From a virus (Duplodnaviria; Heunggongvirae; Uroviricota; Caudoviricetes), in the IMG/VR virus record IMGVR_UViG_3300029184_000014, positions 1 to 14,988 of that record: 14,988 nucleotides of DNA; one strand, 5' to 3'. Made by a program: the position numbers. How positions within the stretch are numbered: the first letter of the stretch is position 1; the number at the start of each line of letters is the position of its first letter. Positions 3,001 through 6,000 of the stretch are shown piece after piece.

Positions 3001-6000
3001 TACTTCAAGATTGACGTTCTTGATATGGAAGTAAGTGCAGGGCCAGGCGTCATTAACCGTGAGTTCGTTGAAGTTTTGCGATCGGTTGAGTACTCCCATG
3101 ATGATGCGCGTCACATGTTTGATGGCCGCAAAGCAGAAAACATCCGCATCATTAACGTGCGTGGCGACAGCATGTCAGGAACGATCGAACCAGGTGACCT
3201 GCTGTTCGTCGATATCAGCGTCAAATCGTTCGACGGCGATGGGATTTATGCGTTCCTCTACGACGAAACCGCTCATGTAAAACGTCTGCAAATGATGAAG
3301 GATAAGCTGCTGGTTATCTCTGATAACAAGAGCTACTCACCGTGGGACCCGATCGAGAAAGACGAGATGAACCGAGTGTTCATCTTCGGGAAAGTCATCG
3401 GGAGCATGCCGCAGACGTACAGGAAGCATGGATAAAAATCTTGCTATTTATATTCATGAATACCTGCCCCCTGATTAACTCCACGCATCACTTGATATAA
3501 GGCACCAAAAATGAGTAATGATGACAAATCTGTAAGTGATGAAGTATCTGATTTTCATAATAAAGTGAAAAATATTACAACCGCTCAATTTTCTGCATAT
3601 TTAAAGCATGTTGGGGCAAATCATAACTGCTTATCTTGCGGTAAGGCTGAACTTATAGCAGTGCAAGACTGGCATTGGGATAAATTCAACAGCAAGGAAG
3701 GGAAAACAGATCTTAATAATATTGAAAAATATACTGTTTTAAGGCTTTACAAGGTTGATGCTCCACATAGTAATGAGCAATGGAATATGACAAAAAAAAA
3801 CTTAATGGATTATGAGTTTAGAGTGATATGCAAACATTGCGGATTCGTTACAAGTTATTTGGCATGGCTTGTTTTCTACTGGCTAAAGAATAACGAAGTT
3901 GACCAATAATGACATCCGGGCCAGAATAAATGAATCCTTTTGATAATATTGCTCCTCTTTTCCCTGAGGGGGATGATAGAAATAACCATAGAAACGGTGG
4001 TAGTGATGGTGGGGGGAATGGCATGCTCGAGGTCAGAGTTGCAAAACTTGAAGCCGACGTTGAAAACATCAAGATAAACTTAGCGGAAACTCGCGCGGAT
4101 GTGAGAGAGCTGACAAAAATTACCTCTTCTATAAAAACTGATGTTTCTACGATACTTCAAAAACTTGTAGATATTGACGAAAAGTTATCTCATAAAGCAA
4201 GTAAGGATTTTGTCGAAGTAAAAACAGGTAATTTAAAGGCTTGGATGCTCGGAATTCTTCTCTTATCCGTTGCAATGCCAGTCATAACTTTGCTCGTAAA
4301 TTTATACATGAAAAAACCATAACCCGGCCACCGCGCCGGGTTTTCTTCCCCCCTTCCCCAACACACTCAACGTCTAAAAAACAACCACAATCTCACTTCA
4401 GCTATCGCTACGCGATGCAAACCACAAAATAAATTCTTTTTGCTATCAATGATTTAATAACCAATCGCATCAAGCAATAACAATACGTATTGATATAGCC
4501 AATAGCAATAGCTATTATCATTCCATCGCAACGACACAGCGATGGGGCAACCACCAGTTCACCCGCTTCACCGTTGCGATGACCGCTTAGATCCGCAGCT
4601 TGAATTTCAGCAGGTTCCGGGGAGTGCGAGGGGTGAAACGGACGTGTGAACGTCGGTGTGACCATCTGGAATCAACTCAACACTTCATACCTCAGTCGCT
4701 TCACCGAGGCGGCTTAGTTATGACTAACGGCGGCCATCCACCGCCAGATTAAGCGCAGAAGTCTTCATATGTTCAGCAGCCCAGCTTACGGGCAGGAGTT
4801 TTTATGGTTCATCAACATTACGGCACACAGACCGTCAATCGCGGTGCCGTCCGGCCAGGAATGCTGGTTAAGCACAAAGATGGCACCTGGACAGCATCAG
4901 CTAATTTACGCGGACGGCTATATCTGCATCGCGGCATCGAGCGCACTTATACCCGTGATTTGCTCGTGGAAGTTTTTCTCGACGGACGCGGTAACGGCCT
5001 GAATCGCTAATCCCCTTTCCTGTTTTCCTAATCAGCCTGGCATTTCGCGGGCGATATTTTCACAGCCATTTTCAGGAGTTCAGCCATGAACGCTTATTAC
5101 ATTCAGGATCGTCTTGAGGCTCAGAGCTGGGCGCGTCACTACCAGCAGATCGCCCGTGAAGAGAAAGAGGCAGAACTGGCAGACGACATGGAAAAAGGCC
5201 TGCCCCAGCACCTGTTTGAATCGCTATGCATCGATCATTTGCAACGCCACGGGGCCAGCAAAAAAGCCATTACCCGTGCGTTTGATGACGATGTTGAGTT
5301 TCAGGAACGCATGGCAGAACACATCCGGTACATGGTTGAAACTATTGCCCGCCACCAGGTTGATATTGATTCAGAGGTATAAAACGGATGAGTACAGCAC
5401 TCGCAACGCTGGCAGGGAAGCTGGCTGAACGTGTCGGCATGGATTCTGTCGACCCACAGGAACTGATCACCACTCTTCGCCAGACGGCATTTAAAGGTGA
5501 TGCCAGCGATGCGCAGTTCATCGCATTGTTGATCGTCGCCAACCAGTACGGCCTTAATCCGTGGACGAAAGAAATTTACGCCTTCCCTGATAAGCAGAAC
5601 GGCATCGTTCCGGTGGTGGGCGTTGATGGCTGGTCCCGCATCATCAATGAAAACCAGCAGTTTGATGGCATGGACTTTGAGCAGGACAATGAATCCTGTA
5701 CATGCCGGATTTACCGCAAGGACCGTAATCATCCGATCTGCGTTACCGAGTGGATGGATGAATGCCGCCGCGAACCATTCAAAACCCGCGAAGGCAGAGA
5801 AATCACCGGACCGTGGCAGTCGCATCCCAAACGGATGTTACGGCATAAAGCCATGATTCAGTGTGCCCGTCTGGCCTTCGGATTTGCTGGTATCTATGAC
5901 AAGGATGAAGCCGAGCGCATTGTCGAAAATACTGCATACACTGCAGAACGTCAGCCGGAACGCGACATCACTCCGGTTAACGATGAAACCATGCAGGAGA

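Follow-up and report, generated by a model that had tools for sequence, protein, structure and literature searches.

To our knowledge, put is the only well-understood nascent RNA that alone renders bacterial RNA polymerase resistant to termination, and it has been viewed as a curiosity of a few phages. It acts in cis, needs no protein factors, suppresses pausing as well as termination, and is blocked by rpoC mutations in the zinc-binding domain. The signals of rrn operons and lambda nut sites (boxA, with or without a boxB hairpin) work through NusB/NusE, NusA and NusG, with or without N. The put RNAs of phages HK022 and HK639 (putL and putR) are processive antiterminators that bind the zinc-binding domain of the RNA polymerase beta' subunit (PMC9378689). 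We compared with these systems the PL leader in a 14,988-nucleotide (nt) stretch of a Caudoviricetes virus (IMG/VR record IMGVR_UViG_3300029184_000014, positions 1 to 14,988; hereafter, the window), which is the early region of a lambdoid prophage. An earlier note on this DNA had proposed that the leader might be a put-like cis-acting RNA, citing a 10-bp inverted repeat, a direct repeat and a GC hairpin. We find that a structured, conserved RNA core does lie in the position of put, at 4578-4672, a segment that the note had not singled out. This core is not a put homolog, and none of the cited features defines it: the 10-bp hairpin is confined to the E. coli subtype of the leader, the exact repeat to the window, and the GC hairpin and the repeat's second copy are parts of another element, located upstream of kil.

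The features of the leader and its operon used in the argument are these:

4490-4518, plus strand: PL-like promoter, TTGATA-17-TATTAT (-35 at 4490-4495, -10 at 4513-4518), the top sigma-70 match in the window (10/12)
4524-4581, plus strand: stem-loop 0 (SL0), the 58-nt 5'-terminal hairpin of the transcript, with a 10-bp basal stem (4524-4533/4572-4581) and a variable interior
4578-4672, plus strand: the core, a candidate antiterminator RNA of ~95 nt, consisting of two stem-loops 2 nt apart (alignment A4, model R2)
4584-4628, plus strand: stem-loop A (SL-A) of the core, pairs 4584-4586/4626-4628, 4592-4595/4618-4621 and 4597-4602/4611-4616, with an 8-nt loop, AAUUUCAG
4631-4663, plus strand: stem-loop B (SL-B) of the core, pairs 4631-4632/4662-4663, 4638-4639/4656-4657 and 4641-4644/4651-4654
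4670-4694, plus strand: G-free, C/A-rich tract of 25 nt, AAUCAACUCAACACUUCAUACCUCA, read from the sequence, joining the core to the kil-upstream element
4685-4723, plus strand: hairpin 1 of the kil-upstream element, 16 bp, irregular, with base UCAUA/UAUGA, a freely covarying middle and apex UUC/GAG
4729-4745, plus strand: hairpin 2 of the kil-upstream element (the GC hairpin), GGCGG-CCAUCCA-CCGCC
4804-5010, plus strand: kil, 68 amino acids, the first gene of the operon (phrog_294 Kil, E = 7e-37; ribosome-binding site GGAG at 4795-4798)
8142-8160, plus strand: intrinsic-terminator-like hairpin GGAGC-UACA-GGCUCC followed by U6 (TTTTTTATTATT), upstream of the dksA-like gene, xis and int

Like put, the core belongs to the untranslated first part of a PL transcript in a lambdoid phage without N, and it is present as a single left-operon copy, as in HK639 and CobraSix, where our put model finds putL only. 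Both RNAs are formed by two adjacent stem-loops with internal irregularities, spaced by 1 nt in put and by 2 nt in the core, but they differ in length (~65-71 nt for put versus ~85-95 nt for the core), in loop and bulge patterns and in internal-loop layout; moreover, the core of the E. coli subtype comes after a 58-nt 5' hairpin. Homology is not detectable at the level of either sequence or structure. The covariance model R1, derived from an alignment of 8 put RNAs in which 7 pairs covary (HK022/O276, HK639, UPF_BP1, phiEt88, CobraSix, S9-5 and PdC23), recovers all known putL and putR at 54-98 bits and, at E <= 10, matches nothing in the window or in the leaders of its relatives; run on 4500-4810 alone (311 nt), it gives a best alignment at 4634-4677 with -0.9 bits and E = 3. 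The comparison with HK022 put advocated in the earlier note thus came out negative, as did that with Rfam: Rfam 15 yields 0 matches in the whole window at gathering thresholds and only chance-level matches over 4300-5100 (E >= 2.3). Because Rfam 15 also has no match for the genuine HK022 putL and putR, its silence is uninformative on put.

With the rrn and lambda nut-type systems, the core shares a location shortly after the promoter, as a presumptive cis-acting RNA signal, and a boxA-type cassette fills the same slot in other phages. It differs from them in lacking boxA (the closest approach, CCGCUUAGAU, is without the UCUUU core), a lambda-like boxB loop and an N gene. The Bacillus EAR RNA and the NusG-paralog systems (PMC8191782) resemble it in that a leader or operon-internal RNA is proposed to promote read-through of multiple terminators; they come from other phyla and have no sequence relation to it, a comparison that consists of the negative Rfam scan only. 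KilS, a small RNA (sRNA) from the 5' untranslated region (UTR) of kilR in the rac prophage of E. coli K-12 (PMC8175672), likewise is a non-coding RNA ahead of a kil gene in a YdaS/YdaT-type prophage; it has no sequence similarity to any part of the leader and was rejected as a relative. The anti-sRNAs AgvB and AsxR and the Pas sRNAs were also set aside, being located in the late region or unrelated.

Structure and non-coding character of the leader core

The core alignment is ungapped and comprises 29 distinct cores, with the window represented by 4578-4672. In this alignment, 97.2% of the cells are paired (97% in the SL-A helix), compared with 29-45% when the partners are slid. Four pairs show compensatory change, two in SL-A, namely, 20-39 (AU to CG) and 21-38 (GC to AU), and two in SL-B, 61-80 (AU, GU, GC) and 65-76 (AU to GC); none of 500 shuffles reached the observed covariation score or percentage paired. 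The search for covarying pairs among relatives that the earlier note had called for was productive, with these four pairs in the core and seven in hairpin 1 of the kil-upstream element. The compensatory changes fall between subtypes with 82% identity, and RNAfold independently arrives at the same two-stem-loop architecture for subtypes A, B and C. A G.G mismatch at 4640/4655 is conserved in SL-B and is replaced by G-C in L193 and part of subtype B. In a set of 49 E. coli leaders, paired core positions have five common polymorphisms, each of which retains pairing as a wobble, and changes that break pairs are limited to single sequences.

The family described by model R2 is characterized by SL-A and SL-B, invariant GAUGACCGCUUAG, UUGAAUUUCAGCAGG and GUGACCAGCUG, and location in the PL leader, all of which are found in the window. 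The window scores 116.6 bits and the best non-member at most 17 bits. Each genome contains exactly one copy, in the PL leader, and on the PR side R2 finds no copy of the core in the window or in the whole genome of phage 4A7. When R2 was run over 100 loci for more divergent subtypes, it returned strong members or nothing. Pattern scans added 14 L193-type contigs (subtype B) and two of subtype C (L311 and L312); one of the patterns, GATGACCGCTTAGAVNC, gave mostly random matches except for the latter two.

The leader is present in 2,233 of the 5,426 complete E. coli genomes (~40%) and in isolated phages, including Bievrevirus 4A7 and 4C10, Perceval, D2, 1W, 3W and several PhiR phages. All annotated examples have the same arrangement, with cI, variable accessory or defense genes, a gap of 480-590 bp, and kil. 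At >90% identity, none of the 5,426 E. coli genomes contains subtype B or C; both presumably come from phages of other enterobacteria. A Kil search of genome contigs identified only 3 loci, none of which carries a window-type leader.

The claim that the operon lacks a recognizable N gene held up in every respect examined. The longest frame in the leader starts with TTG and spans 4600-4752 (50 codons), all others being shorter; none of the leader frames matches a Pfam or PHROGs family, and the frame is interrupted at different places in the window and its relatives (52 unique leaders). Variable sites are distributed over the three codon positions as 20/18/13 (55 unique leaders), with no third-position excess, whereas kil differences between the window and a relative, at ~10:1:2, favor third positions. 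Given the lack of family matches, the differing interruptions and the absence of a third-position excess, we treat the leader as non-coding. The ATG at 4720, which is in frame with kil in relatives and is followed by a stop codon in the window, is part of the helix at the base of hairpin 1. The frame ahead of kil (4591-4803) has no stop for 72 codons in most E. coli relatives, where it is in frame with kil; in the window, a TAA at 4750 interrupts it. Having no coding signature, this open frame is probably a by-product of the G/C-rich structured RNA. No N is annotated in 4A7 or in the annotated E. coli prophages examined; the complete 4A7 genome encodes a Q-like late antiterminator and no N, and PHROGs detects no N homolog in the relatives with boxA-type or put-type leaders either.

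Upstream of the core, the PL promoter reported in the earlier note, with the -10 at 4513-4518, was recovered, and the transcription start is inferred to lie at ~4524-4526. In phages with other immunity types, homology to the window starts at 4524, so that the leader appears as a module separate from the operators. The inverted repeat at 4524-4533/4572-4581 is likewise exactly as described, with 10-nt arms that are 100% complementary and enclose 38 nt. The resulting SL0 folds at -23.2 kcal/mol with z = -4.77, a stability equaled by 0 of 200 shuffles, and its basal stem is retained in 49 leaders, with the frequent polymorphisms preserving pairing as G-U wobbles; its interior varies by subtype and includes an 8-nt insertion in the window. 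Only the E. coli subtype has SL0. Also real is the direct repeat CGCTTCACCG, with copies at 4564 and 4697 (0.01 chance matches expected), which extends to 20 nt at 80% identity; it is exact in the window only, relatives carrying TGATTCACCG and CGCTTCAACG, and its second copy constitutes the 5' arm and apex of hairpin 1.

Three cassettes at one position of the PL leader

In most phages that carry the kil-upstream element, the PL transcript opens with an CCATCGAAACGAAACATCGA hairpin followed by a second small hairpin, and the first ~22 nt of the window transcript are homologous to this hairpin, adjacent to the transcription start, of the wider phage supergroup (similarity seen with HK639, KO-TP1 and locus L107). 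Between the 5' hairpin and the kil-upstream element, at ~+52 to +65, lies a slot that is occupied by put, by a boxA-type sequence or by the window-type core. A loose pattern for the CCATCGAAACGAAACATCGA hairpin matched 126 unique sequences, which we classified. In 41 of these, a hairpin is followed by TGCT(T/C)(T/A)TTAA(C/G)AA at +54 to +63; 22 contain put, at +65 (+30 in two of them); and 40 have the window-type sequence. The remaining 23 have none of the three, comprising 20 spurious matches (19 inside a coding region), 2 boxA variants and L193, with a diverged window-type core. The boxA of the slot is identical in 11-12 of 13 positions to what we take to be the rrn boxA, with TGCTTTTTAACAA matching at 12 of 13. 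The boxA pattern (CGCUCUUA / UGCUCUUUAACAA, <=2 mismatches) is absent from the window-type leaders and is found in 41 other leaders of the supergroup.

The window core begins ~52-54 nt past the inferred transcription start, and in subtypes B and C the core occupies the exact position of put. In these subtypes (L193, L220-L233, L311 and L312), its left flank is ...CAGCGGCGAAGTGGAG and its right flank TTTACCAGCAGCTCTTTGCGAGGGGCTGACGGTAAACAA, and the same flanks, identical in sequence, surround put in HK639 and L211. Judged from these sequences, the exchange of core for put between identical flanks is a clean cassette replacement. Conversely, L107 has the layout of the window with put in place of the core, the kil-upstream element following 12 nt after put. 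Cores of subtypes B and C are joined to at least 7 different promoter or operator regions; overall, the core is linked to several unrelated immunity/promoter regions and to two different downstream contexts. In L193, an HNH-like gene, further genes and terminators come between the core and the kil-upstream element; the intrinsic terminators in this stretch number at least 2 by scan and 3 by eye. The core is located 2 kb from kil in subtypes B and C, with other genes and terminators between them.

The boxA-type cassette is an observation in its own right. It consists of a hairpin, GGCGGACAGCAAGUCGCC, followed by UGCUUUUUAACAA or UGCUCAUUAACAA (L096 ~2390-2420, L002 ~1290-1320 and 39 other leaders), and may represent an rrn-style antitermination leader in phages that is protein-free or dependent on host factors only.

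A candidate antiterminator and the alternatives

From its sequence and context, we consider it an even call that the core is a new cis-acting antitermination RNA, a put analog that is not homologous to put. Among the readings considered, this one is favored because the core takes the slot of put between identical flanks, terminators lie downstream of it in relatives, neither N nor put is present, and viable phages, such as 4A7, are arranged in the same way. The proposal of the earlier note thus retains its functional part, as a candidate, and loses any implied kinship with put. The first ~150 nt of the PL transcript would form a structured RNA made up of SL0 and the two-stem-loop core, with SL0 as an accessory 5' hairpin of the E. 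coli subtype only. The core would work in cis on the polymerase that has just made it, rendering it resistant to termination as the put RNAs of HK022 and HK639 do, with no part played by a phage N-type protein; the route could be direct binding of RNA polymerase, as with put, or recruitment of host Nus factors, as with rrn leaders. The modified polymerase would then pass the terminator at 8142-8160, allowing expression of the dksA-like gene, xis and int, and, in relatives, the terminators at the ends of accessory genes that have been inserted after the core. More tentatively, and as a possibility we rate somewhat below even, the core could constitute a second, independent class of protein-free processive antiterminator RNA that binds and reprograms E. 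coli RNA polymerase through another fold, such that put, core and boxA-type cassettes are swapped at one site of the PL leader; what remains of our belief in antitermination goes to action assisted by host factors.

The need for antitermination in this operon was argued in the earlier note from terminator-like hairpins and a distant int, and both are in place. The hairpin at 8142-8160 ends in six T residues and is conserved at the same position in 4A7, where the upstream genes are different, and int, on the plus strand at 8963-10134, is far from PL, albeit split into two open reading frames (ORFs). Excision of a prophage after induction requires xis and int, and in lambda both are expressed from PL.

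Several observations weigh against the antitermination reading. The E. coli subtype has no terminator between PL and exo (kil-gam-bet-exo), the sole strong terminator comes 3.6 kb further along, and a separate promoter might serve xis/int. In 4A7 (L219), the PR operon contains, between P/ren and Q, terminator-like hairpins on the plus strand at 39589-39614, 41663-41684 and 43119-43142, and that side carries no copy of the core or put; either antitermination is not generally required or the right operon is handled otherwise. Thermodynamically, the core does not stand out (z = -1.2 to -1.8), and its compensatory changes come from three lineages only, implying few independent events. Within E. 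coli, leader identity is 91-95%, versus 85-96% at third codon positions of neighboring genes, that is, the leader diverges like synonymous sites and gives no short-range signal of constraint. Furthermore, equivalence of the slot with that of put demonstrates interchangeable cassettes and is not proof of the same mechanism.

The last but one of these findings would fit a core without function, a hitch-hiking remnant kept by recent common descent. We regard this as distinctly improbable, given the compensatory changes between subtypes of 82% identity, the association of the core with unrelated promoter/immunity regions and two downstream contexts, and its residence in a slot otherwise held by functional antitermination signals. 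Somewhat more credible, and still unlikely, is that the leader serves as an ordinary 5' UTR of the toxic kil, governing its translation or stability or silencing leaky PL transcription through Rho/NusG attenuation, with the downstream terminators unaffected. Under this explanation, it makes sense that kil is the first gene and that the kil-upstream element accompanies kil in many phages, and the untranslated leader contains the G-free, C-rich 25-nt tract at 4670-4694, which resembles a possible Rho-binding (rut) site. Rho loads at G-poor, C-rich untranslated RNA. In the rac prophage, NusG-dependent termination silences kilR (PMC5793797), and the kilR 5' UTR gives rise to KilS (PMC8175672). In subtypes B and C, however, the core resides in the put slot, 2 kb from kil, and is therefore not tied to kil; regulation of kil suits the 3' element at 4685-4745 better than the core.

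An action in trans, in which the leader RNA or a processed piece of it is an sRNA or sponge that titrates GcvB or Hfq through CA-rich stretches, seems to us highly improbable. The 5' end of the E. coli consensus, in a loop, reads CAACAACACAAC, which is complementary to the GU-rich R1 seed of GcvB and includes the CACAACA target consensus (PMC4104026); a second CA-rich tract is found at 4670-4694, and Hfq-bound sRNAs do originate from phage early-left operons, for example, lambda PreS (bioRxiv 10.1101/2024.10.31.621285). Yet the CA motif is degenerate in the window (CAACGACACAG) and belongs to SL0 rather than to the conserved core, no terminator follows that would set the 3' end of an sRNA, and the interchange of core and put would go unexplained. 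We give very little credence to membership of the core in the HK022 put family in a diverged form. Both are two stem-loops just past PL, and SL-B, with GAAACGG...GUCGG, recalls put stem I, GAACGG...GUCGG; this likeness is within chance, the conserved interior of put stem II (GGCGGGYUCAGGAnGArCGGCAAU) is absent, and the -0.9 bits of the leader compare with 54-98 bits for known putL and putR, so this candidate was rejected. Least probable of all is a small N-like, Arg-rich protein encoded from TTG 4600 or GTG 4633 (...RFRGVRGVKRTCERRC...). It could draw on the 50-codon frame with its Arg-rich stretch, on GGGGAG 8 nt before GTG 4633, and on the frame that in most relatives is open for 72 codons into kil; against it stand the stop codon of the window that relatives do not share, codon-position counts without a third-position excess (20/18/13), differences between window and consensus that are mostly non-synonymous, the lack of Pfam or PHROGs matches, and nucleotide changes that are compensatory in RNA helices.

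If the core is a second, unrelated RNA that does what put does, RNA-only antitermination would have evolved more than once, and a second route would open for studying how RNA tunes the exit channel and zinc-binding region of the polymerase. It would also explain how the excision and recombination genes are expressed after induction in prophages without N that are as common in E. coli as the genome counts above indicate. Put, boxA-type and core cassettes between fixed flanks amount to a natural swap experiment, making the hypothesis directly testable.

The kil-upstream element and the surrounding locus

The second RNA of the leader, at 4685-4745, is defined as the 16-bp hairpin 1 followed by GGCGGCCAUCCACCGCC. 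Across 41 distinct variants of hairpin 1, 96.9% of cells are paired and 7 pairs are changed on both sides, with a covariation score of 0.347 versus 0.125 for shuffles and 0.04-0.07 for slid controls. Its apex closes a loop of 3-4 nt (in some phages, UUCG or UACG), and its base sequesters the AUG at 4720. Hairpin 2 was correctly identified in the earlier note as a GC hairpin at 4729-4745; its invariance is partly built in, its sequence being the search pattern, and in S9-5 the pairing survives differences at 2 positions. A T-run comes after hairpin 2 in some phages, and the depositors of HK639 annotated the hairpin as a terminator. The element has no match in Rfam 15.

It was found in HK225, HK639, CobraSix, S9-5, KO-TP1, ENT1 and dozens of IMG/VR contigs (for instance, L002 ~2500-2565, L089 ~5145-5211, L093, L094, L096, L097 and many other IMG/VR loci), ahead of kil or of a small gene upstream of kil. 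Outside the group of the window, it is almost always located 0-13 nt past an intrinsic terminator, deep in the PL operon; at least 5 different terminator hairpins precede it, and the genes before them are highly diverse accessory genes. Its location past terminators and its co-occurrence with a genuine putL in HK639, CobraSix and S9-5 exclude it as the antiterminator. Phages are known to use RNase III processing hairpins, such as the sites in T7 early mRNA and in the lambda N leader. The kil-upstream element resembles these as a long, irregular intercistronic hairpin with a conserved base and apex, a variable middle and a position right after a terminator, and differs in its extra short GC hairpin. 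From its form and location, it may be an RNA-processing or stability site (RNase III-like) or a control element of the kil module. It is, in any case, a strongly covarying RNA ahead of the gene for a toxic cell-division inhibitor in many enterobacterial phages.

Some further observations concern these leader RNAs. A 5-nt unit of the tract at 4670-4694 is duplicated in some relatives. A 5' hairpin of the CCAUCG-AACGAAACA-CGAUGG type is kept across differing immunity and antitermination cassettes (window 4523-4545; HK639, L089, 3939-3960; L107 6095-6116), and in the window this segment can adopt two alternative pairings, a local one (4523-4529/4539-4545) and one with 4572-4581. L193 carries, in the same operon, a second, degenerate copy of the kil-upstream element, with hairpin 1 intact and hairpin 2 decayed (reverse complement, ~2125-2260).

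The remaining features of the window surround this leader:

1835-2380, minus strand: cII-like gene, YdaT-type
2405-2638, minus strand: cro, YdaS-type
2743-3435, opposite direction to cro: cI-like S24 repressor
3511-3909 and 3930-4322, same direction as the cI-like repressor: two accessory genes
4321-4342: bidirectional terminator hairpin closing the cI-like/accessory gene run
8963-9430 and 9337-10134, plus strand: integrase, split into two overlapping ORFs, both matched by integrase PHROGs

The plus strand corresponds to the “leftward” direction on the lambda map. O and P are read in the same direction as the YdaS-type cro and the YdaT-type cII-like gene. The small hairpin at 2397-2413 that had been noticed at the cro stop exists; without a T-run, it is not terminator-like. 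In HK639 (L089 351-410), the depositors annotated an “M3-like RNA” right after the YdaT-type cII gene; the counterpart of this site in the window has no intergenic space, the cII-like gene ending at 1835 and O starting at 1838. PL is followed by 285 gene-free nt, kil, gam, bet, exo, small ORFs, a 354-amino-acid ORF, the terminator-like hairpin at 8142-8160, the dksA-like gene, two small ORFs and the split integrase. The split points to a frameshift, whether of a pseudogene or from a sequencing error, which could leave the prophage incapable of excision.

The window is 100% identical to part of NZ_AP023208.1, an E. coli TUM18781 record of 70,209 bp, which is not chromosome-sized; the prophage may be carried by a plasmid, phage-plasmid or separate contig. 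Past the integrase, at 10529-13627 on the minus strand, are genes for a HEPN (RiboL-PSP) protein, a GmrSD-type restriction endonuclease and a DNA methylase, a group that looks like a defense island adjoining the attachment site. Finally, many unrelated accessory genes of PL operons are preceded by a conserved 5'-UTR cassette, ...CAUUUCUCCCGCAUCAGCGGGUAAC(G/U)ACAGAGGG(U/C)AAG..AUG (L096 ~2740-2785, L097 ~2775-2820 and, in L193, reverse complement, ~1497-1537 and ~2461-2504), which, together with the terminator and the kil-upstream element, frames exchangeable gene cassettes.

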